64,000 nucleotides of DNA. Origin: Erysipelotrichaceae bacterium. GTDB lineage: Bacteria > Bacillota_I > Bacilli_A > Erysipelotrichales > Erysipelotrichaceae. Location: positions 3,198 to 67,197 of the forward strand of contig JAFRJA010000045.1 in the NCBI GenBank assembly GCA_017432545.1, given 5' to 3'. This document shows positions 1,736 through 23,586 of this stretch, piece after piece. A program made the position numbers and the translations under genes. How positions within the stretch are numbered: the first letter of the stretch is position 1; every line of letters begins with the position of its first letter. The notes below the pieces were generated by a model that was not told the origin of the DNA, made no database searches, and saw only the letters and a list, made by a program, of their open reading frames with translations.

Positions 1736-1804
1736 AACTTGTAGCAACTTGCTACAAGTTGAAATGGAATGCTGAACGAAGTTGTAGAAAGTTGCTACAA
1801 CTTC
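1736..1804. promoter_or_regulatory. pair of palindromic operator-like sites upstream of the coupling-protein gene
   Basis: Perfect 25-bp palindrome AACTTGTAGCAA-C-TTGCTACAAGTT at 1736-1760. Imperfect copy GAAGTTGTAGAAAGTTGCTACAACTTC at 1778-1804. The same pair recurs at 5715-5775. Confidence 0.6.
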
Positions 1805-1827
1805 TTTCATAGAGGAAAGGAGAATAA

Positions 1828-4071
1828 ATGTACATTGTTTTTATTATGCTTTCGGTAATAATCATACCGATACTCTATCTCTTCCTGGGACTGCAGATCA
1901 TATCCCTGGGAGACTTTGTAAGATCAGGATTTGAACAGGAATTCAGGATCATCTTTGATATCAGCAGATATAAAGAGTATCCTGATTTTTTGTTTTCGGT
2001 TCTGGCATTGGCTGTACTTACTGTTGTCTCGTTTCTGACGAGCACGGTTTTATCTTCCAGGGCAAGAGCTCAAAGGAAGGTAAGATCATTGACAAGAGAA
2101 GAAAAGAGGCGTGTTTCAAGGATTGCATCCAGGCATGAGGCCAAGAAAGGAACGCAGCGTCTTGAATTCAATACCGAAGGCCAGAACCTTCAAAACAGGA
2201 CTTTTAGAGGAAGTATCGATATTCTGTTTGATCCGATTAAACGCCTCTGGAACAGTCTGATAACGGTTCTGAGATTATCCGATATTCATAAGTTCAATAC
2301 GCTGCATGAGTGGAAGATTGGCGATGAAACAACTAATAGAAGAGGTGGACCTCCGATCATGACTTCCAGAAGAAGGATCTGGGTTGATGCCGCCGATACG
2401 CATTCCCTTGTTGTAGGTACCACCAGATCAGGCAAGACCTTCTCCATCGTCAATATTCTCATACAGTCATTAAGAATGTCTGATGAATCCATGATCGTTA
2501 TGGATGTAAAAGGCGAGCTTTACAAGACACATGGCAAATCGCTGATCGATGACGGATACGATGTCAAAGTCGTTGATTTCATCAATCCTAAGAAGTCTGT
2601 CAGATGGAATCCTTTGGGAATCATCATCAAAAAATACAGGGAAGCATATAACGAATACCAAAGGCAAATGTCAATGCCGGAAAACAGAAACATTGTTGAT
2701 GAGATATCTCAGGACAGGATCCTGATCACTCAGTTCAAAAGGCAGATCGCCAAATCTGACGGCGATCATGATGATCTTTTCAAACAGATAAAGATTCTGG
2801 AAAAGGAGATAGAATCCCTGAACGCAACGCTGCCAAGACCTAACTACTCGGAAGCTGAGGAACTGATATCTGATATTGCTATGAGACTCTGCCATGAAGA
2901 AGATGCCAGAGATCCTTTCTGGTCTTCTTCGGCGACAACGATCCTGGAAGGATACATCAACTTCCTTCTGGAACAGAAGATCAGGGATGAAAACGGAAAG
3001 ATGATGTTTCTTCCCGATGAGATGATCAATATGCGATCGGTCAAGATGCTGCACGATCAGGGAAAGACCTGGATCGATCCGGAGAAGTATGACAACTGCA
3101 GTTCCATTCTGGAATACTTCATAACAAAGAAAAGGAAACAGACGGATCAGTCCTATATGAAGCTGATCGAATTTGTCAGGTCTCCCGACAATACCAGAGG
3201 ATCAATCTCTGCGGTATTCGATGACAAGATCAAATACTTTCTTGCCAATGAGGATATTCTGAATATGACTTCTGTATCGGAATTTGATCTCAAGCAGCTT
3301 GGACAGAAAAAGACTGCGATATTCATCGGAATCCATGACGAAAAAGGAACCTATCATGAACTTCCTTCCATTCTGATCTCACAGACCTATGAGGAGCTGA
3401 TTAAGCTGGCCAGAAATGAAACGGACAATTCAAGACTAAAGGTTCCTGTATATGTAGTATGGGATGAATTCGCCAACGGATCCAGATGGGACAATATCGT
3501 AAATGCTTTGACTGCCGGTTTATCAAGAGGAGTCAGGTTCTGTCTGGTTGTACAGGACTTTGCGCAGCTTAATACCAAATACGGAAAAGACAATGCAGGA
3601 ACGATCCGATCCAACTGTCAGAATCTCTATTATCTGCTTGCTGGAGAATACTCGACTCTGAAGGATGTTTCTGATCTTTGCGGATCAAAGATCATCTGGA
3701 ATCACAACCGGCAGGAAAAGGAAACCGTTCCGTTACTATCGACCGATGCGCTGTCAAAACTGTCGATGGGAGAAGCGGTCATCAAAAGGCAGAGAATGAA
3801 CCCGATCAATACAAGGCTCAGAAGCTTTGACCGGTATGTCTTCAGACTACCTGAAACTCCTGTTCTTCCAGACAGAAGACTTCCAACAGCACAGTTCTTC
3901 AGCATTGATGATGAATTCAAAAAGATAAAGCTAAAAACTGAAGGAAGAATTATTGCTGAAAAGAATCATGAGGAGACTGATGTGAATGACGTTTCAGAAG
4001 ACAGGGTTCCATCGGCAGAAGAAAGAGCCGGTGAGGCCAAAGAAGGAGAGGAGGTAGGTCTGGTTGAATAA
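1828..4071 (+). CDS. type IV coupling protein (TraG/VirD4/TcpA-like conjugal DNA-transfer ATPase)
   Basis: Two N-terminal TM helices, Walker A VVGTTRSGKTFS, MDVKGELY..WNPL, and Walker B-like VYVVWDEFANG. Strong GGAAAGGAG RBS. Confidence 0.8.
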   Translation: MYIVFIMLSVIIIPILYLFLGLQIISLGDFVRSGFEQEFRIIFDISRYKEYPDFLFSVLALAVLTVVSFLTSTVLSSRARAQRKVRSLTREEKRRVSRIASRHEAKKGTQRLEFNTEGQNLQNRTFRGSIDILFDPIKRLWNSLITVLRLSDIHKFNTLHEWKIGDETTNRRGGPPIMTSRRRIWVDAADTHSLVVGTTRSGKTFSIVNILIQSLRMSDESMIVMDVKGELYKTHGKSLIDDGYDVKVVDFINPKKSVRWNPLGIIIKKYREAYNEYQRQMSMPENRNIVDEISQDRILITQFKRQIAKSDGDHDDLFKQIKILEKEIESLNATLPRPNYSEAEELISDIAMRLCHEEDARDPFWSSSATTILEGYINFLLEQKIRDENGKMMFLPDEMINMRSVKMLHDQGKTWIDPEKYDNCSSILEYFITKKRKQTDQSYMKLIEFVRSPDNTRGSISAVFDDKIKYFLANEDILNMTSVSEFDLKQLGQKKTAIFIGIHDEKGTYHELPSILISQTYEELIKLARNETDNSRLKVPVYVVWDEFANGSRWDNIVNALTAGLSRGVRFCLVVQDFAQLNTKYGKDNAGTIRSNCQNLYYLLAGEYSTLKDVSDLCGSKIIWNHNRQEKETVPLLSTDALSKLSMGEAVIKRQRMNPINTRLRSFDRYVFRLPETPVLPDRRLPTAQFFSIDDEFKKIKLKTEGRIIAEKNHEETDVNDVSEDRVPSAEERAGEAKEGEEVGLVE

Positions 4072-5542
4072 TAGAATACTTTGGATGCCTTTAAAACTGA
4101 TGGGCATCTTTTTTATTGTTATATTGCTTTTGATCATACCAATCTGTGCAGTCTTTGCCCCGGTCGTCTATCTTGGCAGCATCTTTGACAATTCCTTTGG
4201 AACACTGAAAGACAATTTTGATATCGATTACGATTCAAACTTCACGGATGAGCTGGATTCCTATATCTATGAAAACAGGATCTCTCCGGACTATAACGGT
4301 ATTACCGGATGTATCTTCTATGAATCGACTGATACGCCAGCAGACTGTCTTTCTTCAATCGATGAAGATGGAAGACTGTCTGAGATCTATGATCATCAGC
4401 AGTTTCTGGATATCGATGAGGATCTTTATATAGGATCTTACGATGATTTCTATTTCGATGAGATCCATGTATTAGGTAAATATACTGTTTCAAAGTACGA
4501 AAAGGTAGGGGAGCATGAAGAAACCAGGCTGGTTGAAAACGCTGGTTCAGGTCCATATACGGGACCTCAATATGAAACAGTCATTGTTGAAGAATACGAC
4601 TGGGTCTACTATCCGGAAATTCAAAGAGGCAAGTGTGAATCGTCGGATACAATTGCCTGCAACATCATCCTGGAAGATAAAGATGTCTATCCCTACCAGA
4701 TGATCACCTTCAACAAGGAATCATCCTTTGGCTTATGTGTTGATCCTGAATCCTATGAGATCTCGTTCAACAGTTATCAGGAATGGTCTGGAGATATGCT
4801 GTATGCATTCTCAAAGGGAACAGTAATATCTGCGAACGGTAAAGAGATCACGCTTCAGATCGATGCCAATGATGTTGATCTTTATGCCAGATATGAATCT
4901 GAGGAAGGATATCTGTCTTCTTTGTTTTCACCAGGTGAAACTGTTGAAGCTGCAGAGACCATTGCCTACTCCGAAGGCAATACCAGACTTTATATCTACA
5001 ACTCCAGAAACGAATATATCAATCCAGCTCTATTTGTTTTTGAGAAGAATTATTATACGGGACTTGGCAACGGAACGATCATTATCGGCATGGAAGACTT
5101 TGCTCCGGACTTTTCCGATACAAGAGTCTGGTATGGCTATGACGATGGCGGCATCAATCCATATGGTGATGATCATATGGGACAGTGCACATGGTTTGCT
5201 TGGGGACTGTTCTATCAGCATTATGGTTTTGATCCGGGATTCAGAGGGAAAGGAGAAAACAGTGCCTATCAGACCTATCAGAATCTGAAAGACCAGGGAT
5301 GGACCTTTTCCAGATCTCCATCACCCGGAGCGGTATTCTCTACTACCAACTTCAATCATGTAGGCATTGTCGCAGGAGTGATCGATGAAGATACCATGAT
5401 CATCGTAGAAGCCAACTTCAATCATAAGAACGATACATTCAAAGAATTCATATCGCTTCCGGATTGGGCAATGAGAGTTGTTTCAACAAAACAGTATAAA
5501 CCGGGAGTAGGATTTATTTACTGCAATCCTCCTCAGGGTTAG
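4064..5542 (+). CDS. membrane-anchored CHAP-domain peptidoglycan hydrolase
   Basis: N-terminal TM segment. The C-terminal region has GQCTWFAWG (catalytic Cys) and NHVGIV..VEANF (His/Glu), as in CHAP amidases. TTG start overlaps the upstream stop after a GGAGG RBS. Confidence 0.75.
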   Translation: MNNRILWMPLKLMGIFFIVILLLIIPICAVFAPVVYLGSIFDNSFGTLKDNFDIDYDSNFTDELDSYIYENRISPDYNGITGCIFYESTDTPADCLSSIDEDGRLSEIYDHQQFLDIDEDLYIGSYDDFYFDEIHVLGKYTVSKYEKVGEHEETRLVENAGSGPYTGPQYETVIVEEYDWVYYPEIQRGKCESSDTIACNIILEDKDVYPYQMITFNKESSFGLCVDPESYEISFNSYQEWSGDMLYAFSKGTVISANGKEITLQIDANDVDLYARYESEEGYLSSLFSPGETVEAAETIAYSEGNTRLYIYNSRNEYINPALFVFEKNYYTGLGNGTIIIGMEDFAPDFSDTRVWYGYDDGGINPYGDDHMGQCTWFAWGLFYQHYGFDPGFRGKGENSAYQTYQNLKDQGWTFSRSPSPGAVFSTTNFNHVGIVAGVIDEDTMIIVEANFNHKNDTFKEFISLPDWAMRVVSTKQYKPGVGFIYCNPPQG

Positions 5543-5573
5543 GTATTGCCATGTACAGTTGATGTCTATTCTT

Positions 5574-5712
5574 AAGCAGGATAAAGGTTTTGTATACACC
5601 AGGTGTATACAAAACCATCTGAACAACTTGGCTCTGCCAAGTTTTGCCCTTATTTCAAGGGCTTTTTCTAATATTTCAACAAAATAATGAGTGTATACAC
5701 AGGCGTATACAT
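5574..5712 (+). repeat. three-hairpin module, copy 1 (oriT/sso-like or small RNA), plus a second TGTATACA palindrome
   Basis: AAGCAGGATAAA, then GGTTTTGTATACACC-A-GGTGTATACAAAACC (15-bp stem), CTTGGC-TCT-GCCAAG, and GCCCTT-ATTTC-AAGGGC followed by TTTTT. A further palindrome GTGTATACACAGGCGTATACA follows. Near-identical copy at 16217-16354. Confidence 0.7.
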
Positions 5713-5714: not shown

Positions 5715-5775
5715 CCAACTTGTAGCAAGTTGCTACAAGTTGGTTTGATGTAGTTGTAGAAAGTTGCTACAAGTT
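5715..5775. promoter_or_regulatory. second pair of TTGTAGCAA/TTGCTACAA palindromes upstream of the RHH-relaxase operon
   Basis: Perfect 29-bp palindrome CCAACTTGTAGCAA-G-TTGCTACAAGTTGG at 5715-5743. Imperfect copy at 5751-5775. Confidence 0.6.
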
Positions 5776-5791
5776 TTATGAAAGGAAGAAA

Positions 5792-6250
5792 ATGTCAAAT
5801 AACAATAACGTGATAACTGTCAGATTGGACGGTGACTGTCTGACAAAACTTGATAAGCTTCTGGAGTTTGAAAAGGTTGAAGCAAGAAGAATCAAAAAAC
5901 CAGAAGGAAGAAAGAAGGATATTATCGAAGAAGCGATCAGGGATCTTTATTACAAGAAGATAAACAAAACTCATGATGCCGATGTCGTAGGAAGGATCTC
6001 ACAGACCGTAGATGACAAAGTGAATGCCTCGATGAACAATCTACATGGCAAGATCGACCAGATCCTGTATCTGGTGAACAAGCTGGATCTGGGAACCAAA
6101 GTACTCTACAGAAGTCCGAGCGTTATGCCTGCGCCTAAGGATGTTGAACAGGCCATAAGAATTATCACAAACGAAGAATCGAAATGGTACAACGCTGTAG
6201 AGGAGATAATGACCAGCAACATCAAGAAGAAAGATGAAGGGGAAGAATAA
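5792..6250 (+). CDS. ribbon-helix-helix protein (relaxosome accessory/regulator candidate)
   Basis: N-terminus VITVRLDGDCLTKLDKLL fits an RHH beta-strand plus helix. The stop overlaps the downstream start (TAATG). Confidence 0.55.
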   Translation: MSNNNNVITVRLDGDCLTKLDKLLEFEKVEARRIKKPEGRKKDIIEEAIRDLYYKKINKTHDADVVGRISQTVDDKVNASMNNLHGKIDQILYLVNKLDLGTKVLYRSPSVMPAPKDVEQAIRIITNEESKWYNAVEEIMTSNIKKKDEGEE

Positions 6251-7461
6251 TGCCGGATCTTTTCTGCAAGGTAAGATATTTCAGAATCGGACAGGATGCA
6301 CCGAAGAACAGCTGCTTCAAGGGAACCGTAACACCGAAGTCGATATTCGGTGGATCCGGTTCTTATTTTGATTATTGTGAACGATATGTTGATAAGGAAA
6401 ACAAATCCCTGATGAGCTATACCGGAAGATATGGATATACCATGACTTCCGAAGGATATCTTGATACCAAAGAGAAATCAGAAGAATTCAAGATCAAAGG
6501 AACGGAAGCATTGAATAAACCTGGAGCAGTTCTTTATGAATTTGTTGTCAGTATGCCTGACTATGATCGGGCAAACAACTATAATCTTGCATCACAGGAA
6601 CAGTTCGCTCCGGTAATATCGAATATCATGCCGGTATATCTCAAATCCATAGGCCTTGATCCAAATAATGTTTCCTGGTGGGAAGACTTTCATCCGGAGA
6701 ACAGGACCAGCGTAACACCGCATCCTCATATCCATCTTCTTTTCTTTGAGAATGAACCTTCCGGAACATTCGATCAGTCCTATGGAAAGCTTCCAAAAAA
6801 AGCGATAGACAAGTTCAAGAATCTTTTCGGAAACGAAATGTTGAAAAGAGAAGACCAGGGAATATATCGAGATCTTTTCAGAAACATCAATGAATCCAGA
6901 AAATATGTTCTTGATAATCTCAAGCATACCGATCTTAGTAAGGTAAAGTCTCTGAAAGATCTGTACGCAATTCTACCAAAATCGGGAAGACTGCAGATCA
7001 ATTCTGCCAATATGGCTCCATACAGGGAAACGGTATTCAGAGTCGTTGATGATCTTCTTGGTTCAAAGGAATGCAAAGAAACCTGGGATAAGTATTTATC
7101 ATCATTGGATCGATATGAAAGAAGAATCAATGTTAAATCAAGTCAGTCTGTTTCACAAAGGAAGGAAATGGAAATCTCAAAACTTAAGGATCAGATCGCA
7201 AACTATATTCTTTCCAACCGGAAGGGATACATTTCAGAGAATTCATACGACAGCATATTGAAAAATAGAAACTATAAGTTGTCTGATGGAAGCCAGGGGA
7301 TAGTTTATAAGAACAGTTCTATTGTAAGAGGTAGACTCTCCACAAGAAACTCAACTGTCTCAACGAAAAGAGCAATCAATGGTTTGGTTGCCAAAAGGCA
7401 AAGGGAGATTGAAAGGGAGATCGATATGTATCTGAACCAGGGAAGAGGTATGAGCATGTAA
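6250..7461 (+). CDS. putative relaxase/mobilization protein (histidine-triad type)
   Basis: FHPENRTSVTPHPHIHLLFFE resembles the H-x-(D/E)...PHxH metal-binding motif of MOBQ/MOBP-like relaxases. N-terminal Tyr-containing region. Sits beside the RHH gene, coupling protein and hairpin module. Confidence 0.5.
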   Translation: MPDLFCKVRYFRIGQDAPKNSCFKGTVTPKSIFGGSGSYFDYCERYVDKENKSLMSYTGRYGYTMTSEGYLDTKEKSEEFKIKGTEALNKPGAVLYEFVVSMPDYDRANNYNLASQEQFAPVISNIMPVYLKSIGLDPNNVSWWEDFHPENRTSVTPHPHIHLLFFENEPSGTFDQSYGKLPKKAIDKFKNLFGNEMLKREDQGIYRDLFRNINESRKYVLDNLKHTDLSKVKSLKDLYAILPKSGRLQINSANMAPYRETVFRVVDDLLGSKECKETWDKYLSSLDRYERRINVKSSQSVSQRKEMEISKLKDQIANYILSNRKGYISENSYDSILKNRNYKLSDGSQGIVYKNSSIVRGRLSTRNSTVSTKRAINGLVAKRQREIEREIDMYLNQGRGMSM

Positions 7462-7533: not shown

Positions 7534-7605
7534 ATGGTTTTACACATACAGGGCGGACAACCGGTATCGCTGATAGGGTGCCTGCTGTTTTGGATGAAAG
7601 TCTAA
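7534..7605 (+). CDS. candidate 23-aa leader peptide (MVLHIQGGQPVSLIGCLLFWMKV)
   Basis: Strong AGGAGGA RBS 5 nt upstream of the ATG. Its 3' codons and stop lie inside a terminator stem. Confidence 0.35.
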   Translation: MVLHIQGGQPVSLIGCLLFWMKV

Positions 7606-7630
7606 AACGGCAGCCCCTTTTTGTTTTCTT
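7582..7630 (+). terminator. attenuator-type terminator overlapping the leader ORF end
   Basis: CTGCTGTTTT / AAAACGGCAG 10-bp stem followed by CCCCTTTTTGTTTT. A further hairpin GGTTTGGCA..TGCCAAAC lies at about 7648-7700. Confidence 0.5.
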
Positions 7631-7824: not shown

Positions 7825-8253
7825 GTGGAAAATAATCTGAATTTGGAAGATATTTCTAAGCAATACGATTCATACATTAAGAAGACCATCAGGAACTTTA
7901 AAGCTGATTACATCAGAAAAAATGCAAGCAGATGGGAAAACGAACTATATCTGGAAGAATTGCCGTTTGCCAAAAGGGAAGATCTGATGAAAGACGAAAC
8001 AGTCAGTGATAATGAAAAAATGTATGTGGTTAACGGGAGATTAATCACAAAAGAGATGATTCATAAAGCACTGAATCTTCTTCCGGAAAAGAAATCGGTC
8101 GTCATCAAACTTCATTATTTTGACAATCTTAATGAAGATAAGATAGCAGAGCAGCTAGGTCTATCCCAAGAAGGTGTCAGCAAAAGAATAAGGACAGCAT
8201 TAAAGATACTGATGGAAATATTTGAGGATATCGGTGATGGCGAATGCATCTAA
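7825..8253 (+). CDS. sigma-70 family (region 4) transcription factor, Tn916 orf7-like
   Basis: AAGGAGG RBS then GTG at 7825. C-terminal NEDKIAEQLGLSQEGVSKRIRTALKIL is a sigma region 4.2 HTH. Confidence 0.7.
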   Translation: MENNLNLEDISKQYDSYIKKTIRNFKADYIRKNASRWENELYLEELPFAKREDLMKDETVSDNEKMYVVNGRLITKEMIHKALNLLPEKKSVVIKLHYFDNLNEDKIAEQLGLSQEGVSKRIRTALKILMEIFEDIGDGECI

Positions 8254-10256: not shown

Positions 10257-11669
10257 GTGTATAACAGAGTCATCTATGAACTGACTCAAAAGAAAACAAG
10301 TGAATATACTCTGCAGGATAAGCTTACAGAAAAGCAGGAACTTGATAGATACAGGAGAAATCGTGTCCCGATCTATCCTTATGTTTTCAAAAAGGAGATC
10401 TATTTCAGGATCGTATTCAGGAATAAGACGATCAGGGGATTCAGCAACTTTGAAAAAGCGGAAGAAAGCTATCAGAGGCTGTTGAATGGTGAAACAATGG
10501 TCAAAGATGCTCAAAAAGAACTGAAACAGGAAAAGATAAATGCAAATGTTTCTCTTGCAGATGGATTTGAGGTTCTTCTCAAGAAACATGCAGCAGCCTA
10601 TCAAAACGGTGAACTGAAATATTCCGCTTATTCCAAAAAAGACTCCACAATCAGAATTCACATCATTCCTTATTTCAAGGAAAAGCCGATAGCCGAGATC
10701 ACGAAGGGAGATATCGCTAGGTTTGTACATCATATCCGTTCGGAAGAGATATCCGGAAAAACAGGAAAGAAAGGAAAGCAAAAACAGCTGTCTGTTTCTA
10801 TGCAGCATGAAGTACTGATGTATTTCAAAATGCTCTACAAGGAGACGGTGAGATGGTTTGATATCGAAACTTCAATCGACATTGACAGAGAAGTGGAAAT
10901 GCCAAAGATGTCCAAATCACGCAAGCAGTACAACAGAGAGGTATCAGAAAAAATCAACGGAGACTATGAGAAGAATGCAAAGATGATTATGGAGGAACTT
11001 TCCAAACTTGAATATGGGATCTATCATCCGGCATTCGGAATACAGCTATTGATCAGTTGCACCGGTATGAGGATAAATGAAGCAAATGCTCTGAAGCCGT
11101 CAAAATTCGATTATGAAAAAAAGACGCTTTTAATCGACAGGAACATTTCTTGGCATCCTAACAAGAAGAGAACTAAGAAGTCCTATGAAGAAACATCGAC
11201 CAAGACCGATACGGAAAGAACGATACTGCTGCCCGATTCAATAGCGGAATATCTGAAATCGTATATTGATAGATTGAAACAGCTCACTTTCTATTCGGAT
11301 GATATGTACATCTTCTCAAGACTTGGTCTGGCAAGAAATACAAGCATGATTCTTGATCCGTTCTCTCTCAAGTCTTTCGACAATATCTTAAAAAGGATAT
11401 ACAAGGATCTTAATCTTAATCCTGATGAAGAGGATAATAAAAAGGATAAGAACCATCTAGCTAGGCACGCCTTCAATACGTTGCTGAAGAACGAACATAT
11501 CGAGGAGTATGATAGAAAGCTATATCTTGGTCATTCTACCGGTTCGGGCGTCAATGAGGGCTATACCCATGGATCGCCTGAGGAAGAAAGAAGGATCGTC
11601 GAAGCGGCAGAAAGATACTGTAATTACCTTACAGAGGGAATTTCCGAGTTTAAACTGATGAAAAAATAG
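10257..11669 (+). CDS. tyrosine recombinase/integrase of element A
   Basis: C-terminal HLARHAFNTLL ... LGHS ... GYTH (R-H-R-Y catalytic pattern). Paralog of 23587-24987. Confidence 0.85.
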   Translation: MYNRVIYELTQKKTSEYTLQDKLTEKQELDRYRRNRVPIYPYVFKKEIYFRIVFRNKTIRGFSNFEKAEESYQRLLNGETMVKDAQKELKQEKINANVSLADGFEVLLKKHAAAYQNGELKYSAYSKKDSTIRIHIIPYFKEKPIAEITKGDIARFVHHIRSEEISGKTGKKGKQKQLSVSMQHEVLMYFKMLYKETVRWFDIETSIDIDREVEMPKMSKSRKQYNREVSEKINGDYEKNAKMIMEELSKLEYGIYHPAFGIQLLISCTGMRINEANALKPSKFDYEKKTLLIDRNISWHPNKKRTKKSYEETSTKTDTERTILLPDSIAEYLKSYIDRLKQLTFYSDDMYIFSRLGLARNTSMILDPFSLKSFDNILKRIYKDLNLNPDEEDNKKDKNHLARHAFNTLLKNEHIEEYDRKLYLGHSTGSGVNEGYTHGSPEEERRIVEAAERYCNYLTEGISEFKLMKK

Positions 11670-11670
11670 G

Positions 11671-11782
11671 CAATCTTGTCAAAAACTTGTCAGTTTTTTC
11701 CGGACCGGAAATGCAAAAAAGTCAGGAAAAATCGAGGTTTTCCGCACTTTGAAAGAATGCAATCTTGTCAAAATCTTGTCAT
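11671..11782 (+). repeat. arm-type direct repeats of element A (CAATCTTGTCAAAAnCTTGTCA, two copies)
   Basis: Copies at 11671-11693 and 11760-11782, each a tandem CTTGTCA heptad, about 80-190 bp from the att repeat. Confidence 0.55.
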
Positions 11783-11858
11783 TTTTTGCAAAAAACAGGT
11801 TTTCTGCCAAGGTAAAACATTAAAAAAGTGCCCATTTTTAGGCACTTTTGAAGATTTC

Positions 11859-11875
11859 TGGCTGCGGATGAAGGA
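11859..11875. repeat. att direct repeat: duplicated 3' end of tRNA-Gln (junction between elements A and B)
   Basis: TGGCTGCGGATGAAGGA is identical to 25004-25020 (tRNA CCA end, acceptor and T-arm). Confidence 0.85.
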
Positions 11876-12022
11876 GACTCTATAATCCTCTTTCCTTTAT
11901 CTCAGCTTAGAAACGAAATAATCCCATATGTTTATTGCAAGCCTTTAAAATAAGGCTTTTTTGAGATTGATTTCAAAACGTTTGTAAACGTTACTAATCA
12001 ATAAAAAACATACAAAAAAGTC

Positions 12023-12045
12023 AAATCTTGCAGAAATCTTGCAGA
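12023..12045 (+). repeat. arm-type repeat of element B, left end (AAATCTTGCAGAAATCTTGCAGA)
   Basis: Identical 23-mer at 24932-24954, inside the 3' end of the int B coding region. Confidence 0.6.
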
Positions 12046-12064
12046 TTTTTACGAGAAGAATCCT

Positions 12065-12892
12065 ATGGAAAAAGAGAAGAGAGTTAGATCCGGGTCAAAG
12101 AGATACTACTGGATGAGACTGAAAGCGGATTTCTTTGAAAGCCCCGAGATCAGAAAGCTGAGGAAGCTTGCCGGCGGAGACACCTACACCATCATTTATC
12201 TGAAGATGATGCTCAAGACGATCACCAATGGCGGAGTGTTTGTCTATTCGGGGATCGAGGATACTTTCGAAAAGGAAGTGGCCCTGATCATCGATGAGGA
12301 TGAAAACAATGTCATGATGACGATTGCCTACCTTAGGAAGCATAATCTGCTGGAGGAAGGATGTTCAGAGAACGCATATCTTCTGAACGCCGTACCGGAA
12401 CTGATCGGATCGGAGACAGCGGATGCAGAGAGAAAAAGGATCGCACGTTCCATGGATCCTGAAGTGGTCGCTGAGATCGCTGCCAATGATGATGTGGCGG
12501 ACAATGTCCGCCAATTGTCCGAAAATGTCCGCCAATTGTCCGACAGAGAAGAACAGAACAGAATAGAACAGAACAGAAAAGAGATAGATATAGACCAGAA
12601 CAAGAACAGAGTACAGAAAGTGATCGCTGACACCTTTTCAAGTGATCCTGAAGGCTCTGAAGATCTGGCCTGGACTGTCACCAGGAAGATGAATGGCGAG
12701 CAGTACGCTGCATTTTACTCGCTGATGGAGAAGATGAAACGAGGTGAGATCAAAACTTCCAAAGATAATCTTTACCGGTATTTCAATAAGCTGGCTGAAA
12801 GAGACTGGAAAGATTCCAATGGCGTACCTATCAAGGATCTGGTCAAATATGTGCAGACCAATTTTGCCTTGAACGGCAAATCGCTTAACTGA
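12065..12892 (+). CDS. phage/plasmid replisome organizer-like replication protein
   Basis: N-terminus YYWMRLKADFFESPEIRKLRKLAGGDTYTIIYLKMML resembles the phage replisome organizer N-terminal domain. The central part is low-complexity. Confidence 0.6.
   Translation: MEKEKRVRSGSKRYYWMRLKADFFESPEIRKLRKLAGGDTYTIIYLKMMLKTITNGGVFVYSGIEDTFEKEVALIIDEDENNVMMTIAYLRKHNLLEEGCSENAYLLNAVPELIGSETADAERKRIARSMDPEVVAEIAANDDVADNVRQLSENVRQLSDREEQNRIEQNRKEIDIDQNKNRVQKVIADTFSSDPEGSEDLAWTVTRKMNGEQYAAFYSLMEKMKRGEIKTSKDNLYRYFNKLAERDWKDSNGVPIKDLVKYVQTNFALNGKSLN
12497..12620. repeat. iteron-like repeats inside the replication gene (candidate origin)
   Basis: AATGTCCGCCAATTGTCCGA occurs twice (12503-12522 and 12524-12543). 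Palindrome GGCGGACA-A-TGTCCGCC. A run of GAACA pentamers at about 12550-12580 is followed by an AT-rich GAGATAGATATAGA stretch. Confidence 0.45.
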
Positions 12893-12905
12893 GAAAGGAG
12901 AAGAC

Positions 12906-13109
12906 ATGCTAAAGCTCAGAGTTGAAGGAAAAGAAAACGATATACGAAGATACCTTGAGATCATCCACAGTGATGAATCGATCGAGATCAATAGCATATC
13001 AGACTTATACCCTAACAGGAAGAACGTGTATTCAAGATACTATCTGGAGATCGAACTGATCGATCAGGATGGAGGTGAAACAGATGACCAGGATCATCTC
13101 TATCAATAA
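12906..13109 (+). CDS. hypothetical small protein (67 aa)
   Basis: AAAGGAG RBS. No motif recognised. Confidence 0.45.
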   Translation: MLKLRVEGKENDIRRYLEIIHSDESIEINSISDLYPNRKNVYSRYYLEIELIDQDGGETDDQDHLYQ

Positions 13110-13890
13110 CCGTAAAGGCGGAAGCAGCAAGACTACTACCGCCATCAATCTCGCCTATGAATTTGCTAGATCCGGATACAGGACCTTATTGATCGACCTG
13201 GATCCGCAAGGTAATGCATCCTCCAAGTTCGTAGAAGAATACGAGACCGTCTACGGCATTGCTGAAGTTCTGGCTAAGAAGATCGACATCAATTACGCCA
13301 TCCATGAGACTTCTGCTAGCAGCAATCTCTACGTCATTCCTTCAAAGATCGAACTGGATGATGTGGCAGAGTACATGCAGGGAAACTCCCAGATCGCTAT
13401 GCTGTCAAAAGTGCTGAAAGATCTCAAAGATGACTATCAGATCATCGTTCTGGATTCCAATCCTGGTATTCCGATCTTACTGAAGAACTGCGTTTATGCA
13501 GCGGATCTGATCATCATCCCGGTGAATGTAGACAGAAACTCTATCAAGGGAGTAGATCTTACACTCAAGAAGATCAATGAAACGATATTCGACTCGCCAA
13601 GTGAGCTGGATGTCGATTATAGGATCCTGATCTCCATGGTTACCTATTCCTCCGGCGAACCAACAAACATCGCCAAAGGCGTTTTAAAGGCCGTTAAGGA
13701 TGCTTACAAAGACAAGGTCCTGCAAACAACGATCAGGCTGCAATCCAAACCTGCGCAGCTGCAGACCTTTGAGAATGGATACTATGCGACCGACTTTGAC
13801 ACTGGGTACGGTTGTGATTACAGGAAGCTTAAGGAAGAGATCAAAGATCTCATTGAACCGGGCCACTGTCCCACTTTGGAGGCGAATTGA
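13084..13890 (+). CDS. ParA/Soj-family partition ATPase
   Basis: GGAGGTG RBS. Deviant Walker A NRKGGSSKTTT, and DLDPQGN. Confidence 0.85.
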   Translation: MTRIISINNRKGGSSKTTTAINLAYEFARSGYRTLLIDLDPQGNASSKFVEEYETVYGIAEVLAKKIDINYAIHETSASSNLYVIPSKIELDDVAEYMQGNSQIAMLSKVLKDLKDDYQIIVLDSNPGIPILLKNCVYAADLIIIPVNVDRNSIKGVDLTLKKINETIFDSPSELDVDYRILISMVTYSSGEPTNIAKGVLKAVKDAYKDKVLQTTIRLQSKPAQLQTFENGYYATDFDTGYGCDYRKLKEEIKDLIEPGHCPTLEAN

Positions 13891-14648
13891 TGGAAAGACA
13901 GATCTCTTTGATCAATAACGAAGACTTTGATTCCTTGGACAAGTCCAAGAAAAGCAAGATCTACTTCCTGGCCATGCAGGATCTCAAGTCCAATCCCCTG
14001 AACCGGATCTATGAAAAAGAGGATTCAAAGGAGGATCTGGATGAGCTGATCGAGTCCATCAAGGAGACAGGACTTCAACAGCCATTGACCGTATCCAAGT
14101 CAGACGAAGGCTATGTGCTGCTTTCCGGACACAGGAGAATGAAAGCATTGACTCATCTGTTTAAACAGGGAATTGAAGTCAGATACAACGGTCTGATCCT
14201 GGCGGAAGACAATGTGCCGGTGATCATCCAGTATGTATGCAAGACAAAAGAAGAACAGTTTAGGGCACTTGTGGCATCCAACTGTTACAGGCATCTGAGC
14301 AAGGAAACCAACAGGAAGCTCATCGCTGAAGCGATCAAGATTTACAACAAGCAGTTATCCTCTGGAAAGACTGGATCAGGCAGGATCAGGGACAACATCG
14401 CAAAGATCGCCAACGTTTCCGGAAGATCTGTCCAGCGTTATGTAGATTTCGGCAAGAAAGGCGAGCCAGTGAAGATGAAGGAAGAAAAGAAAGAAGCATT
14501 ATCTTCTTCCGAGCAGATCCTGAAGAAGCTGGATTCCATGATCAGAACCATATCTTCGATCGAACTTGATGATTATGGGAACCTGGACAGAAAGATCATC
14601 AGAGAGAAACTGCGGCAGCTGTCATTTCTTCTGTCGGAAAAACAGTGA
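13887..14648 (+). CDS. ParB-like nuclease/partition protein
   Basis: ParB N-terminal box LLSGHRRMKAL. Start overlaps the parA stop. Confidence 0.75.
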   Translation: MMERQISLINNEDFDSLDKSKKSKIYFLAMQDLKSNPLNRIYEKEDSKEDLDELIESIKETGLQQPLTVSKSDEGYVLLSGHRRMKALTHLFKQGIEVRYNGLILAEDNVPVIIQYVCKTKEEQFRALVASNCYRHLSKETNRKLIAEAIKIYNKQLSSGKTGSGRIRDNIAKIANVSGRSVQRYVDFGKKGEPVKMKEEKKEALSSSEQILKKLDSMIRTISSIELDDYGNLDRKIIREKLRQLSFLLSEKQ

Positions 14649-14686
14649 TGTGTTGATATAATGAAAAGTGGAATAATAGGTACTTC

Positions 14687-16180
14687 ATGTTGGATTTCAA
14701 TCAGATAAAAGAACTGATCGCAAAAGGCGAAACCGTTTCCCTGGAATGCAAGGAAGCGTCTTTTGCAATACCAAAATCTGTCTATGAAACCTATTCGTCT
14801 TTAGCCAACACCAATGGGGGTCATATTCTTCTAGGCGTTAAAGAGGACAGGAAAAATCATTCTTTTGAAGTTACCGGAGTCGTCAATGCGGACGAAATGC
14901 TTAAATCGTTCTGGGGAGAGATCAACAACCCAAGAAAAGTCAGCATCAATATCCTTAAGGATGAGAACGTCTATACTGTAACAGAGGAAGGAAAAACCGT
15001 CATCGTGATCAAAGTGCCTCGGGCACGTTTCAACGAGAGACCGGTCTATGTTGGCGAGAATCCTTATTCGGGCACATTCAAGCGCAACAACGAAGGCGAT
15101 TATCATTGCACCATGGATGAGGTCAACTCCATGATCAGAGACAAATCTAGCAATGGCAATGACAGTGTTATTCTCGAAGGTCTAACAATGAATGATATCG
15201 ATAATGACACATTAAGAGGCTACCGCAATTTCTTCAGGACCTATAATGACTCCCATATCTGGAACGGCCTGCCTGATCAGGAGTTTCTTGAAAATCTCGG
15301 CGGTTATGCCAGAGATGAGAAAACAGGTGTTGAAGGTCTGACGGCTGCCGGCTTTCTGATGTTTGGCAAAGGCGTCCGTATCAGAAACAAGTTCGCTCAT
15401 ATCTTTATGGATTATAGAGATGAGAGGAATAAGACTGTCGATGTCAGATGGATCGACCGAATCGTCTATGATGGAACCTGGGAGTGCAATCTCTTCAACT
15501 TCTTCATGAGAGTCGTTCCCAAGCTCACAGCAGATCTGCAGAAACCGTTTCATCTTGAAGGAATCTACCGTGTAGATGACACACCGGTCCATAAGGCTGT
15601 CCGTGAAGCACTGATCAACATGATCATTCATGCGGATTATTTCATTCAGGGGACACTTAAGGTCATCAGAAACAATGACAGTTTCGTCATATCAAATCCC
15701 GGTTCGCTGAAACTGCCTAGAGAACAGATCTATAAAGGTGGTAGCTCGCTTGCAAGAAACCCGAATATGCAGACAATGTTCAGGATGATTGGCTTAGGTG
15801 ACGAAGCAGGCTCCGGTTTTCCGACGATCGTATCCGTCTGGAAAGAAAACGGCTGGATCGAGCCTGATCTTGAGGAAGAATACGAATTGAATCAGGTTGT
15901 ATTGACATTGTCGTTTAAAAAACCGGCGATAAAAAATGGCGATAAAAAAGTGGCGATAAAAAATGGCGATAAAAAAGTGGCGATAAAAACAGTCGAAAAT
16001 AAAAAAGCAATTCTAAGTTTTCTATCAGATGGTTCCTTCAGAAATATCAACGAAATAATGGAGGTGCTTGGTTTAGGCAAGTCTAGAACAAGGGAACTGT
16101 TGGCAGAATTGACCGAGACCGGAGAAATAATCGCCGAAGGATCAAACAAGTACAGAAAATACAGAAGATCAGATTACTGA
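14687..16180 (+). CDS. AlbA_2 (Schlafen-like) / RecG-C-terminal-like ATPase-fold DNA-binding protein with wHTH
   Basis: N-terminus GETVSLECKEA...ANTNGGHILLGV is AlbA_2-like. Central NPGSL...RNP..MF.. pattern. C-terminal winged-helix-like region. Confidence 0.6.
   Translation: MLDFNQIKELIAKGETVSLECKEASFAIPKSVYETYSSLANTNGGHILLGVKEDRKNHSFEVTGVVNADEMLKSFWGEINNPRKVSINILKDENVYTVTEEGKTVIVIKVPRARFNERPVYVGENPYSGTFKRNNEGDYHCTMDEVNSMIRDKSSNGNDSVILEGLTMNDIDNDTLRGYRNFFRTYNDSHIWNGLPDQEFLENLGGYARDEKTGVEGLTAAGFLMFGKGVRIRNKFAHIFMDYRDERNKTVDVRWIDRIVYDGTWECNLFNFFMRVVPKLTADLQKPFHLEGIYRVDDTPVHKAVREALINMIIHADYFIQGTLKVIRNNDSFVISNPGSLKLPREQIYKGGSSLARNPNMQTMFRMIGLGDEAGSGFPTIVSVWKENGWIEPDLEEEYELNQVVLTLSFKKPAIKNGDKKVAIKNGDKKVAIKTVENKKAILSFLSDGSFRNINEIMEVLGLGKSRTRELLAELTETGEIIAEGSNKYRKYRRSDY
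15925..15978 (+). repeat. in-frame 27-bp tandem repeat (KNGDKKVAI, two full units)
   Basis: GCGATAAAAAATGGCGATAAAAAAGTG repeated twice, followed by a partial third unit. Confidence 0.8.
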
Positions 16181-16216
16181 TTCACTTTTGGACTTGATCG
16201 TATACACCTCATTGAT

Positions 16217-16354
16217 AAGCAGGATAAAGGTTTTGTATACACTTGGTGTATACAAAACCACTTGAACAACTCGGCTCTGCCCAGTTTTGCCCTTATTTTA
16301 AGGGCTTTTTCTTTATCTACTGAATTATCGTCTTTGTATACATCGGTGTATACA
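16217..16354 (+). repeat. three-hairpin module, copy 2 (element B)
   Basis: Near-identical to 5574-5712, including the second TGTATACATCGGTGTATACA palindrome. Confidence 0.7.
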
Positions 16355-16430
16355 AAAACACTAAAACGTATACGATCGGTTGAATTACCAAAGCTTGCTA
16401 TGTTGTAATTTCACGATGATATTCAAAAAT

Positions 16431-16571
16431 TTTGTGGTACAGCCTGTACTACAAAAAATGAAATCATGGACAGAGGTAAAAATGGCTTGAAATAAGGAAA
16501 AACCCAGCAGAGCCGGGTTGTTCAGATGGCTTTGTAACACAGATTTGTGGTACAAAGTCTTTATCCTGCTT
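16431..16571 (-). repeat. three-hairpin module, copy 3 (inverted, diverged, stems partly kept by compensatory changes)
   Basis: The reverse complement reads AAGCAGGATAAAGACTTTGTACCACAAATCTGTGTTACAAAGCCATCTGAACAACCCGGCTCTGCTGGG. The first two stems are retained with different sequence. Confidence 0.6.
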
Positions 16572-16820
16572 CGCATATTTGATTGTAAATAGCTATGATT
16601 CTGTCAATTGGTTAAAGGTTCATGACCTGAAAAACATTCTTATCTAATAAATCAAACAGCATCGTTCTTTTCCTTAGATATCAATGATATATAAAGGTCA
16701 AAATGTATTATGTCAAAGAAGGCATTGACATGGATCTGTTGAAAAAACTTTGTGAGCCATCATGATCATTTAAACTGAAAGTTGATTTTCTTTTTAGTGT
16801 ATTTCATCCAAAATAATAGT

Positions 16821-18095
16821 ATGGAAAACAAGAAAATTGCTGATTTCATCTGTCAATGTCGGAATGAAAACGGAATGACACAGTCCGACCTGGCTGAAAA
16901 AATCGGTGTCTCTATTCAAAGTATCTCCAAATGGGAGACCGGGAAAGCAGTTCCTTCTTTTAAGCATCTTAATGAGTTATGTTCTGTTTTTGATGTGACG
17001 GTGACAGAACTGCTGAATGGCGAAAAAATCGAAAATCAGAATACGAAGATTGACAAGGCAGAGGAAACGATCCGAATCTTAGGAAAAGAGAACGAGAACA
17101 TCATTTCCGGAAAGAATAAGCTTCTGAAAGCCAGTATTATTCTGATCGCGTTACTGTCGATTCTTTCGACAGTCCTTTACAGTAAAACAAGGCAGAACGA
17201 TTATGAGATCGATATTTTATCGGTAAGTCCCAATGGTATCGGGAAGAGTATCAACGGTCCGTATGTCGATGGGGAAACCTATATCGATAACGAAGATATC
17301 TTCATCCCGTCGGAATTTCCAAGCGAAGTTGATTTTCTGCTTGAAGAGTTCAAAGAGAAACTGCAAGAAGAATATCAGCTGGAGTGGATCGAAAAAGCTG
17401 TTGTGCCGGCAAAGACGCGGAACTTTCATATAATGGAGGACGTCTATGGGACACTGGTCTTCTCTCCCTGGGGTTATGAGATACGCTTTGAAGTCAGCGA
17501 TAAGAAACGTAAAGTCTCAAAAACATATACGGCTTTTCTTCCTAGGTTAAATAGTCTTGGCAATGGCGATGGATCGTTTTACATCGATATGCCTGAGACC
17601 GGTCAGTATCCTAGAGTTTTGGATGAGAAGGAAGTTTCCGAATTCCTTGATCAGTATGAAGGAAATTATCACTGGCAATCCGAAGATCATGATCCATTGA
17701 ACGGAAACTGTGCAGAGATCATGATCGAGATCCGTAAGATGAATGATAAAGTCAATTACAACATCTATCAATGGACCGGCTGTCTTACAGATAGTGTTGC
17801 ATACCGCATCAAAAACATCATTAAAATCGACAGGAACACTTTTGAGCTCTATCTGTACCGCATCCATAATCTTGGTTACTCTGCACCTTCCGATATTACA
17901 ATGTTTCCAACAGGTGTATATATCATAAGGGTCGATGATAGTAATGATCAGTGTTTCGATCTTCAGTTTCAGGGAGTAAACCTATCAACGATCGATTCTT
18001 TTGACGGAAGAGTAGAAAATGGAAAGCTCTTTAGAGAATTCATCAATCTGTATAAAAAGGAAGGTGAATGGTATCGGTTTGAGAAGGAAAATTAA
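16821..18095 (+). CDS. membrane-tethered XRE-family HTH protein with large extracytoplasmic domain of unknown function
   Basis: MTQSDLAEKIGVSIQSISKWETGK HTH, followed by one TM helix (ASIILIALLSILSTVLY) and an unknown domain of about 290 aa. Confidence 0.7.
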   Translation: MENKKIADFICQCRNENGMTQSDLAEKIGVSIQSISKWETGKAVPSFKHLNELCSVFDVTVTELLNGEKIENQNTKIDKAEETIRILGKENENIISGKNKLLKASIILIALLSILSTVLYSKTRQNDYEIDILSVSPNGIGKSINGPYVDGETYIDNEDIFIPSEFPSEVDFLLEEFKEKLQEEYQLEWIEKAVVPAKTRNFHIMEDVYGTLVFSPWGYEIRFEVSDKKRKVSKTYTAFLPRLNSLGNGDGSFYIDMPETGQYPRVLDEKEVSEFLDQYEGNYHWQSEDHDPLNGNCAEIMIEIRKMNDKVNYNIYQWTGCLTDSVAYRIKNIIKIDRNTFELYLYRIHNLGYSAPSDITMFPTGVYIIRVDDSNDQCFDLQFQGVNLSTIDSFDGRVENGKLFREFINLYKKEGEWYRFEKEN

Positions 18096-18236
18096 ATCAT
18101 ATTTGAAGTAATTAAACCGGAGAACTTTCATAATGAATAATACAAATACAGTTTTTCTTACAGCCATGATGTCACGCAATGTGAACAAATGGTACAAAGA
18201 AAAGATGGTATTATTTAATCAGAAGGGCAGGTACAA

Positions 18237-18425
18237 ATGAATTCCATACAGACATTCGTAATCGTTTCTTTGATCGGGATCCTGATTTCGTTGAATTTCC
18301 AGTTCCTTGGGCAAGGATCCTATTCATACATAGTCGATATGCATACCATCTCAATTATCATATCGATCGCTCTATCAACAGCGATCGTTGTCCACACGAT
18401 CAGGCAAAACGGAGATAAACAATGA
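18237..18425 (+). CDS. small two-TM membrane protein
   Basis: ORF with two hydrophobic segments and a moderate RBS. Confidence 0.4.
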   Translation: MNSIQTFVIVSLIGILISLNFQFLGQGSYSYIVDMHTISIIISIALSTAIVVHTIRQNGDKQ

Positions 18426-19137: not shown

Positions 19138-19167
19138 AATAAATGTTGAAAAGGAGACTTAACAATC

Positions 19168-19731: not shown

Positions 19732-19851
19732 TCAATCACTGATAAAACATGATATGAAACCATCTTGACAAAGAAGCAATTTAAAAATGATAACTGATCT
19801 AAAAAGAAAGAAAGTGTTATTTATCGTCTTATTGTTAATCGTAATACTGTT

Positions 19852-21779: not shown

Positions 21780-21802
21780 ATGTCATCCGTAGCCCAAAAC
21801 AG

Positions 21803-23582: not shown

Positions 23583-23586
23583 GCTT

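Follow-up and report, generated by a model that had tools for sequence, protein, structure and literature searches.

A candidate family of transfer origins in integrative mobilisable elements of Erysipelotrichaceae, carried also by a tandem island without a relaxase gene

Integrative elements that carry an origin of transfer (oriT) and neither a relaxase gene nor genes for mating-pair formation (MPF) have been catalogued as iOriTs in six Gram-negative species (bioRxiv 10.64898/2026.01.13.699239). In the pWBG749 family, SmpO, a ribbon-helix-helix (RHH) factor encoded between oriT and the relaxase gene, sets the specificity of transfer through two sites at a fixed spacing (PMC8136818). The MOBP relaxases, such as RP4 TraI and VirD2, and the relaxase of Tfs4 from Helicobacter pylori need the core ATCCTG; the MOBP nick consensus, (C/T)ATCCTG(C/T), has an inverted repeat close by on its 5′ side, and in RP4 as in Tfs4 the cut, marked here and below by a caret, falls in TATCCTG^C (PMC3772185). 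The family closest to MOBP is MOBL, whose catalytic motifs are described as an N-terminal tyrosine and a histidine triad, or motif III (PMC5313138). The present analysis concerns a stretch of 64,000 nucleotides of contig JAFRJA010000045.1 from an Erysipelotrichaceae bacterium (hereafter the window), in which a module of stems and short conserved motifs precedes the relaxase operon of an integrative element, A, and occurs twice more in its tandem neighbour, element B, where relaxase genes are absent. On the comparative evidence assembled below, we put at about 0.75 the probability that small integrative mobilisable elements (IMEs) with a MOBL/MobP3-like relaxase have their origin of transfer in this module. 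An earlier note, made from the sequence of the window, had proposed a transfer origin common to A and to its relaxase-less neighbour; comparison with relatives lends this idea strong support, and corrects it as to the nicked strand, the meaning of the stem arms, the sufficiency of element A and the place of the third hairpin.

The module family and the predicted nick site

The relatives of the module were collected with a pattern made of its invariant blocks (AAGCARGATAAAG N30-42 ACAAC N4 CTCTG), for which about 0.5 chance matches are expected in 596 Gb. Among species-representative genomes the pattern matched 8 loci, seven of them in Erysipelotrichaceae metagenome-assembled genomes (MAGs) and one in a MAG labelled Lachnospiraceae, most bearing ruminant gut sample names. 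Metagenomes yielded 29 loci, two of which (L037 and L054) are GC-rich and stemless and were discarded as chance matches, and viral contigs yielded zero; a blastn search of PLSDB plasmids with the module found no match. Altogether the family comprises 41 distinct module cores from about 50 related loci, mostly from rumen or gut Erysipelotrichaceae. The genes for an accessory protein and a MobL relaxase stand directly downstream of the module at 8/8 species-representative genome loci, a count that leaves out the two chance matches and contigs ending too soon, and the same module-accessory-MobL order is found at nearly all metagenome and relaxase-anchored loci. The exceptions are the two copies in element B, called B1 and B2, and those of the loci L052, L045 and L048. 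At L046, an open reading frame (ORF) on a short contig that had been taken for MobL (21% identity) was the wrong ORF and was disregarded.

An alignment of 36 distinct modules reveals three invariant blocks, namely the 13-mer AAGCA(G/A)GATAAAG, the motif ACAAC and the loop CTCT of stem 2. All positions of the 13-mer except the single G/A position are invariant in 36/36 modules, and the six bases 5′ of it are unconserved. Pairing holds in 95.1% of the cells of the two stems, vs. 83.0% in column shuffles and 31-43% with slid partners. Covariation in homologous elements, a check named beforehand, is present: double-sided (compensatory) changes affect 12/22 pairs (96 cells), and 0/500 shuffles match the covariation score. 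Compensatory changes occur in 8/14 pairs of stem 1 and in 4/8 pairs of stem 2, which is found family-wide with 98% of its cells paired; G·T and A·C mismatches in the stems, judged by eye on the alignment, are both present. The third hairpin had been listed as part of the conserved module, a claim that did not survive, as it forms a strict terminator in only 8/45 distinct family members. The conserved unit consists of two stems, the 13-mer and a downstream palindrome, hairpin 3 being facultative, and stem 2 may be a weak terminator or a structural element.

Within the window the listed 13-mer, stems and hairpins of element A were all found where they had been placed (Table 1), as was the second palindrome, although the second half of the latter reads CGTATACA and not TGTATACA. 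The 13-mer occurs three times, vs. 0.18 expected by chance. The almost identical copy announced for element B is B1, which shares 91% identity with the module of A across 102 nt (5568-5669 vs. 16211-16312; repeat family D4), and the third copy, announced at 16431-16571, is indeed inverted and diverged, with stems 1 and 2 retained through different arms. Folded as single strands and compared with shuffled sequences, A and B1 reach z-scores of -7.6 to -9.3 and B2 of -3.2 to -3.5. Hairpin 3 is degraded in B2, which has no strict terminator there and no gene upstream on the same strand; terminator-like scores fall on hairpin 3 in A and B1 and on stem 2 in B2.

If the module is an oriT, the nick is likely to lie in the 13-mer, on the minus strand of oriT-A. 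Read on the opposite strand, the 13-mer becomes TTTATCCTG^CTT (for the minus strand of element A also given as CTTTATCCTG^CTT; in B2 the motif is on the plus strand), within the layout 5′-stem 1-TTT-ATCCTG^CTT-3′. The predicted nic of oriT-A falls between the complements of 5577 and 5576, in the minus-strand context CAAAACCTTTATCCTG^CTTAAG, so that stem 1 ends 3 nt before ATCCTG and 9 nt before the predicted nick. The MOBP consensus is matched exactly, as TATCCTGC, in 25/36 modules, including all three window copies, and appears as TATCTTGC in the other 11/36, this G/A variant being restricted to one relaxase clade. Conservation stops 3 nt past the predicted nick, as would be expected if recognition took place 5′ of the cut. 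The strand is assigned because of the similarity of the motif, the geometry of the stem and this edge of conservation; it is opposite to the strand described in the earlier note, where the element 'AAGCAGGATAAA', inside which the likely nick site lies, had been listed merely as a flanking motif. A nick on the minus strand would bring the relaxase operon into the recipient last, which is the usual arrangement.

In some classes of the family the nick region is overlapped by a further small hairpin (L013, about 8100-8140; L007, about 7560-7610). In modules of the ParAB type an upstream ATCCTG pairs with the CAGGAT of the 13-mer, and in the 'ATTCGT' class CTTACGAATC...GATTCGTAAG runs into the first bases of the 13-mer. 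No such hairpin was found in the window copies A or B1.

Table 1. Features of elements A and B in the window
Feature	Position	Strand	Remarks
Element A
Type IV coupling protein (T4CP), VirD4/CD1115 family	1828-4071	+	Profile matches
CHAP-domain hydrolase	4064-5542	+	Profile matches
Invariant 13-mer AAGCAGGATAAAG	5574-5586		Motif read on minus strand
Stem 1 (inverted repeat IR1)	5586-5616		15+15 arms, loop 1-3; TGTATACA-type arms
Stem 2	5625-5643		AACTTGGC-TCT-GCCAAGTT, then TTTT
Hairpin 3 and T5	5646-5667	+	GCCCTT-ATTTC-AAGGGC is 5646-5662; terminator scan
Downstream palindrome (IR1′)	5691-5711		GTGTATACAC-AGG-CGTATACA; repeats stem-1 arm motif
Operator-like palindromes, TTGTAGCAAGTTGCTACAA type	5718-5750, 5752-5784 (region 5715-5784), 1780-1812		Repeat family D10
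Accessory protein, 152 amino acids (aa)	5792-6250	+	N-terminal β-strand motif VITVRL
MOBL/MobP3-like relaxase, 403 aa	6250-7461	+	NCBIfam and homologues
Tyrosine integrase	10257-11669
att repeat TGGCTGCGGATGAAGGA, 17 nt	11859-11875		Junction of A and B, just after A's integrase
Element B
oriT-B1 (candidate)	16217-16357	-	13-mer 16217-16229; nic predicted on minus strand
oriT-B1 stems			Stem 1 16229-16259; stem 2 16268-16286; hairpin 3 16289-16305 and T5
oriT-B1 IR1′	about 16334-16356		Subtype TGTATACA, as in element A
oriT-B2 (candidate), inverted	16430-16571	+	13-mer 16559-16571; nic predicted between 16568 and 16569
oriT-B2 parts			Stem 1 16528-16559 (TGTACCACA/TGTGTTACA subtype); stem 2 16501-16519; IR1′ 16430-16456
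Integrase	23503-24987		Abuts tRNA-Gln
att repeat TGGCTGCGGATGAAGGA	25004-25020		3′ end of tRNA-Gln (25004-25079, minus strand)

Accessory proteins and origin subtypes

Aligned with one another, the accessory proteins encoded next to the modules show a variable N-terminal domain of about 55 aa followed by a conserved C-terminal domain, and a β-strand-like motif of the N-terminal domain corresponds one-to-one with the type of the stem-1 arms. The motif V[IL]TVR[LIV] goes with the arm TGTATACA (7/7) and TTS[IV]RF with the arms TGTACTACA or TGTACCACA (TGTACYACA; 8/8), ISSFRF with TGTAATACA, TTSYRF with TTGCAATGCA, TTSFRF with TTGCATTGCA, V[MLY]SFRF with the TGTTTACA-type arm and VIGFRF with TGTTAACA. 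In a Mantel test the distance between arms correlates more strongly with the identity of the accessory N-terminal domains (r = -0.62) than with that of the relaxases (r = -0.35). The locus L034 is a case in point: its relaxase is 97% and its accessory C-terminal domain 90% identical to those of the window, whereas the N-terminal domain is only 31% identical, and its arms are of the B2 type. Conversely, L038 and L011, the relaxases of which are 70-72% identical, nevertheless have the motif VLTVR and TGTATACA arms. The type of stem 2 is independent of the type of arm, TCAG and TTGG each being found with VLTVR, and linkage alone therefore does not explain the association of arms and motifs.

The arm sequence of stem 1 recurs downstream. 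Searched with the inner 8-mers of the arms, 27/30 non-ParAB-class modules have their own arm 8-mer downstream, vs. 14% for the arms of foreign classes. The centre-to-centre spacing of stem 1 and IR1′ is 98.5-101.5 bp in three classes, which include A, B1 and B2 (100.5 bp in each) and both L052 copies; two other classes have 84.5 bp and one more about 106 bp. The stem-1 arms and their second copy thus look like protein-recognition sites that define specificity subtypes. It had been argued that covariation in stem 1 betrays selection of the structure itself. The compensatory pairs agree with this, and they are not the whole story, as the arms also track the N-terminal motif of the accessory protein.

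An AlphaFold2 model of the window's accessory protein (predicted local distance difference score, pLDDT, 64.6) has an extended N-terminus followed by two helices. No significant match to the PDB was found for this model with Foldseek, and a profile of accessory N-terminal domains gave only chance-level matches against PDB sequences. When 15 accessory N-terminal domains were compared with Pfam, RHH_1 (6/15) and RHH_3 (3/15) were the commonest matches, all below threshold. Near-identical C-terminal domains are joined to different N-terminal domains (e.g., P0115, P0116 and P0135), a mosaic that points to frequent domain swapping with a breakpoint at about residue 55-60.

Elements A and B

Element A encodes, in order, the T4CP, the CHAP hydrolase, the module, the accessory protein, the relaxase, a sigma-like protein, a helix-turn-helix (HTH) repressor, a probable excisionase (Xis) and the integrase. 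The T4CP and CHAP assignments hold in profile scans, and the T4CP-CHAP gene order is repeated in relatives. The product of 6250-7461, which had been called a relaxase, matches the NCBIfam MobP3 model at E = 7e-27 (94.9 bits, below the curated cutoff of 150) and the MobP2 model at 43.9 bits (cutoff 200). A relaxase match in Pfam is lacking for the protein itself and present in its kin, since 96/106 of its homologues carry a precomputed Pfam MobL domain (PF18555), and the assignment stands on these homologues and on MobP3. Across 21 homologues down to 35% identity, Y57 and the cluster H148...H158-P-H160-x-H162 are invariant, and they are predicted to correspond to the catalytic motifs of relaxases. 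The nearest plasmid relatives are Bacillus genes annotated as 'MobP3 family relaxase', at about 22% identity, and phmmer found nothing among PDB sequences.

Modules of the family occur on two backbones. A-type elements are integrative, 10-12 kb long, and organised as single-stranded DNA-binding protein (SSB)...T4CP-CHAP-module-accessory-MobL-regulators-Xis-Int. ParAB-type elements have the order Rep (AAA_25 or RepOrg)-ParA-ParB-module-accessory-MobL and no T4CP. The A-type element of L001 has chromosomal genes on its flanks and no VirB4 or other channel genes, and the window from 26 to 64 kb is ordinary chromosome without type IV secretion system (T4SS) genes. Because T4SS and channel genes are missing, A-type elements are, judged by gene content, mobilisable and not conjugative. 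The suggestion that A alone mobilises B has to be given up in this form: a mating channel is missing from A, which brings relaxase, accessory protein, T4CP and CHAP hydrolase, and both elements would need a third, conjugative one. Palindromes of the TTGTAGCAAGTTGCTACAA type precede the T4CP gene and the accessory/relaxase operon and are conserved in A-type relatives; in ParAB-type relatives AACGTGGAAAATTTCCACGTT palindromes flank the module instead. These operator-like palindromes are probably sites for a shared regulator. The CHAP domain takes up residues 369-451 of a protein of 492 aa, whose N-terminal 368 aa have no family assignment, and for a channel-less element to possess its own cell-wall hydrolase and T4CP is unusual.

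Element B extends from about 11876 to 25003, between the att repeats, and A lies in tandem with it in a duplicated att site; the integrases of the two are 51% identical. Besides B1 and B2, element B carries genes for a phage-type RepOrg, ParA, ParB, a Schlafen/AlbA_2 protein, HTH proteins, a probable Xis and the integrase. Searches with Pfam, NCBIfam and tblastn found in it no relaxase, T4CP, accessory or T4SS gene, which bears out the description of B as having replication, partition and xis-int genes and neither relaxase nor coupling protein, and no second relaxase, coupling protein or accessory gene was found anywhere in the 64-kb window. The backbone relatives of B (L018, L028, L039 and L053; RepOrg 56-92% and ParA 85-89% identical) have accessory and MobL genes behind a module of the TGTTTACA class, and it is proposed that element B lost the accessory and relaxase genes that these relatives carry.

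The two modules of B are most similar not to the modules of its backbone relatives but to the origins of A-type elements: the nearest relatives of B1 are A and L001, and those of B2 are L049 and L034. A reading of B2 as a mere degraded version of B1 was rejected, because L034, L046 and L049 have this subtype in intact form together with an accessory gene; a relaxase that accompanies the class of B2 shares 97.5% identity with that of A. The two modules are convergent, about 200 bp apart, with identical nick regions and different subtypes. As their predicted nick sites are on opposite strands, transfer begun at one would not be ended at the other. A second, independent RepOrg-ParAB element without relaxase, L052, likewise has two convergent modules with the same two arm families, as seen in the 13 kb in view of a 25-kb contig: parB is succeeded by a module of the TGTATACA type, and beyond genes for a UvrD-like helicase and a PD-(D/E)XK nuclease comes a convergent one of the TGTACTACA type. 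In L045 the module is placed at 8459 on the minus strand and in L048 at 2775, and both loci possess the accessory gene besides and no relaxase; the ORFs after their accessory genes were considered as divergent relaxases and turned out to be SbcD/SbcC in L045 and an unrelated protein of 403 aa in L048. These two loci would represent intermediate stages between full IMEs and elements that retain oriT only, which suggests a gradient of reduction in the family.

Several further features of element B and its surroundings were recorded. The Schlafen/AlbA_2 gene (14687-16180), which also encodes an HATPase_c_4 domain and is possibly related to defence, adjoins oriT-B1, and the predicted nick strand would place it near the leading end of the DNA passed to a recipient; a homologous Schlafen/AlbA_2 domain architecture lies at the edge of a ParAB-type element (L012, 1975-3495). 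Inside the 3′ part of this ORF, about 215 bp upstream of oriT-B1, five tandem units of 13-14 nt (TAAAAAA[T/G]TGGCGA; 15916-16002) resemble iterons or a centromere, though they are within a coding region. Direct repeats GCAATCTTGTCAAAA(A/T)CTTGTCA follow the integrase gene of A (11670-11698 and 11759-11787), and a 23-nt repeat is found at both ends of element B (12023-12045 and 24931-24953); these short direct repeats near element ends are probably arm-type sites of the integrases. In a comparison of L005 12789-15167 and L006 4797-7136 with 23503-25846 of the window, the A-type elements of L005 and L006 lie beside response-regulator, histidine-kinase and ABC-transporter genes that also flank element B, which implies that in related genomes elements of either type integrate at this one site. 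Repeat family D1, a dispersed 34-nt repeat (GTTCATAAAAGTGTAGATTTACGAACA..ATTCA), has 10 copies between 20947 and 44964, in the right part of B and in the chromosome at 36-45 kb, and the repeat families D3, D5 and D11-D13 are associated with it.

Alternatives, proposed mechanism and known systems

The module could be read as a purely transcriptional control region, in which stem 1 and IR1′ would be operators for autorepression by the accessory protein and stems 2 and 3 insulating terminators. Such a reading would fit the covariation of the accessory motif with the arms, the location of the sites 80-200 bp upstream of the accessory gene, the terminator-like scores of hairpin 3 and of B2's stem 2, and the fact that RHH relaxosome factors often autoregulate (PMC8136818). 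It is nonetheless quite improbable, as it leaves unexplained the invariant 13-mer, with its MOBP nick core beside stem 1, and the fact that element B and L052, which have no operon to regulate, each keep two complete modules of different subtypes; the two roles are moreover compatible, and known accessory factors fill both. Very little speaks for the small RNA or structured 3′ untranslated region ending in an intrinsic terminator that the earlier note had offered as its alternative. Only tRNAs reach the gathering threshold in a scan of the window with Rfam 15, the best sub-threshold matches of a permissive scan score 14-25 bits against cutoffs of 62-211 (the top one 25 bits vs. 88), and the terminator hairpin is confined to the few family members given above. 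Compensatory changes in two stems, and the position of hairpin 3 with its T-run after a same-strand gene in A and B1, would suit an RNA, but conservation peaks in the unpaired 13-mer that matches a DNA-cleavage motif, the arms are repeated 100 bp away as a duplex-type palindrome tracking the motif of a predicted DNA-binding protein, and B2 has no same-strand gene upstream. A replication-related site, be it a single-strand origin, a double-strand origin or a parS centromere, is scarcely credible: stable single-strand hairpins and the position of the module directly after parB in ParAB-type elements are what such a site would predict, yet A-type elements have the module and no par or rep genes, the constant partner of the module is the relaxase operon and not Rep or ParB, and the type of arm tracks the accessory protein.

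Two other alternatives accept an oriT and place the nick, or the fate of the copies, differently. The nick might fall on the gene-sense strand in (T/G)G(A/G)ACAAC, a semi-conserved segment (CTGAACAAC) that separates stem 1 from stem 2 and is 3′ of the former, in which case the accessory and relaxase genes would enter the recipient first. This is unlikely: although the geometry of stem followed by nick would hold there too, ACAAC is invariant and the MOBL nic of pLS20 is not ATCCTG-like, the AAC of ACAAC sits in stem 2, the bases before it vary (CATCTGA, CGTGTGA, CACGGGA, GGTCTGG) and bear no likeness to any documented nick consensus, whereas the 13-mer is better conserved, fits YATCCTGY exactly and lies where conservation ends 3 nt past the predicted nick. 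It is about as improbable, or slightly more so, that B1 and B2 are non-functional relics and that B moves passively, by cis-mobilisation of the A+B array, or not at all. Both copies keep the 13-mer, the two stems, IR1′ and the exact 100.5-bp spacing, the subtype of B2 is intact elsewhere, the convergent design with two origins recurs in the independent L052, and B1 is closest to the origin of its neighbour. In favour of relics, A and B sit in tandem at one tRNA-Gln att site with integrases that are 51% identical, stem 2 of B1 contains a C·C mismatch and hairpin 3 is gone from B2. Accretion and cis-mobilisation are, furthermore, established for streptococcal islands (Pavlovic et al. 2004, as cited in bioRxiv 10.64898/2026.01.13.699239); cis- and trans-mobilisation are compatible with one another.

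Other points weigh against the module as an oriT of the kind proposed, or against parts of that proposal. The only experimentally mapped nic of a MOBL relaxase, that of pLS20, is GC-rich and unlike ATCCTG, and the choice of the nicked strand hangs on the likeness of the motif and on the conservation edge. Mismatches are found in stem 1 of B2 in addition to the one in stem 2 of B1. Since stem 1, IR1′ and the accessory N-terminal domain all lie within about 350 bp, co-inheritance could explain part of their association, and the RHH fold of the accessory protein is weakly supported by the models and profiles described above. The relaxase of the window scores below the NCBIfam cutoff and has no Pfam relaxase match (MobL at E ≤ 5), the contig of L052 may encode a relaxase outside the part in view, and T4SS genes, which a helper for transfer would have to supply, are absent from the window and from every locus collected. 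The case for nicking, protein binding and transfer is throughout one of sequence comparison.

Taking the module as an oriT, the following mechanism may be proposed. The accessory protein, with its RHH-like N-terminal domain, would bind the stem-1 arms as well as the copy of them located about 100 bp off and thereby choose the oriT subtype, and the relaxase would cleave 5′-TTTATCCTG^CTT-3′, which is separated from the 3′ side of stem 1 by 3 nt, the nicked strand being the one opposite to the flanking genes. The element's own VirD4-type T4CP would then hand the complex to the mating channel of another, conjugative element. Stem 2 would serve as a conserved structural element and hairpin 3 as an optional terminator of the upstream operon. 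Element B would replicate, partition and integrate by itself and would otherwise be a hitcher endowed with oriT only. Because the TGTATACA subtype of B1 is cognate to the VITVRL accessory protein of A, it can on balance be expected that the accessory protein, relaxase and T4CP of A are able to act on B1. B2, of the TGTACCACA subtype, would need an accessory protein of the TTS[IV]RF class, and none is encoded in the window. A chain of three tiers, in which B contributes origins only, an A-type element the relaxosome and T4CP, and a conjugative element the channel, is a tentative extension of this scheme. If it holds, B hedges with two origins that share a nick site and differ in accessory-factor subtype, and some six accessory β-strand motifs paired with some six arm types form a readable recognition code.

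These results would provide a sequence-defined oriT family for MOBL-type integrative elements of rumen and gut Erysipelotrichaceae, in which transfer origins are essentially uncharted. The logic of subtypes set by accessory factors, known from pWBG749, seems to have a counterpart, built from unrelated sequences, in the chromosomal islands of anaerobes. Islands with oriT only were catalogued in Gram-negative pathogens; element B would add one from beyond that group, and its nearest candidate helper is in turn merely a mobilisable element. With the search pattern and the correspondence of motifs and arms, movable islands of gut metagenomes can be annotated together with their helpers, and a single oligonucleotide or point mutant would suffice to test each predicted nick site, binding site or specificity residue.

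The division of labour proposed here, with an accessory protein that binds the repeat arm and a relaxase that recognises the nick region, is that of TraJ and TraI in RP4. The 8-mer TATCCTG^C of RP4 (IncP), T-DNA borders and Tfs4 (PMC3772185) recurs here in a like position, close behind an inverted repeat and ahead of the relaxase operon; unlike in RP4, the relaxase is only distantly MOBP-like, the host is Gram-positive and one third of the members have TATCTTGC. With the plasmid pLS20 (RelLS20, Aux1/Aux2) the present elements share the MobL domain, in homologues of the window protein, the phylum Firmicutes and auxiliary proteins, of RHH type there and putatively so here, encoded beside the relaxase gene (PMC5313138, PMC5675868). 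The differences are that pLS20 is a large conjugative plasmid whose nic has GC-rich surroundings and stands where another kind of repeat begins, and that the window protein has no Pfam MobL match of its own. The mapped nic of pLS20 was no help as a guide to the nick site here, its sequence being unrelated.

The likeness to the pWBG749 family is one of organisation. In both systems the nick core, a predicted one here, is identical across subtypes and the arms of the inverted repeat vary (PMC8136818), the accessory gene is placed between oriT and the relaxase gene (SmpP there), specificity is incongruent with the phylogeny of relaxase or conjugation genes, and non-mobilising replicons, there staphylococcal plasmids, carry copies of oriT, often two or three and usually of different subtypes. 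The second accessory site lies at 65-67 bp in pWBG749 and the proposed one at about 100 bp here. The DNA is unrelated and the proteins not detectably related, the elements are plasmids there and integrative (tRNA-Gln) here, and the helper is conjugative there, whereas the putative helper here, A, has no T4SS; the origins here are, moreover, convergent and adjacent. The SmpO system has been tested experimentally, and the present one is read from its nucleotides.

Element B resembles the iOriTs in being delimited by att sites, in having its own integrase and no relaxase or MPF genes, and in sharing essentially only oriT with its putative helper. The helpers of iOriTs are integrative and conjugative elements and conjugative plasmids, whereas the nearest candidate here is a tandem IME that shares the att site of B; B belongs to a rumen Erysipelotrichaceae bacterium and carries two subtypes. 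The hitcher B would be a recent derivative, because its backbone relatives still carry a relaxase. More than one oriT per element is also known from ICEclc (oriT1 and oriT2) and R6K (cited in bioRxiv 10.64898/2026.01.13.699239); in contrast to these, the origins of B are about 200 bp apart, convergent and of different accessory-factor subtypes, and B has no relaxase. The strategy of hitch-hiking is thus a known one, and what is new here is the sequence family, the host group, the tandem integrative setting, a nearest helper without a channel and the adjacent, convergent pair of subtypes.

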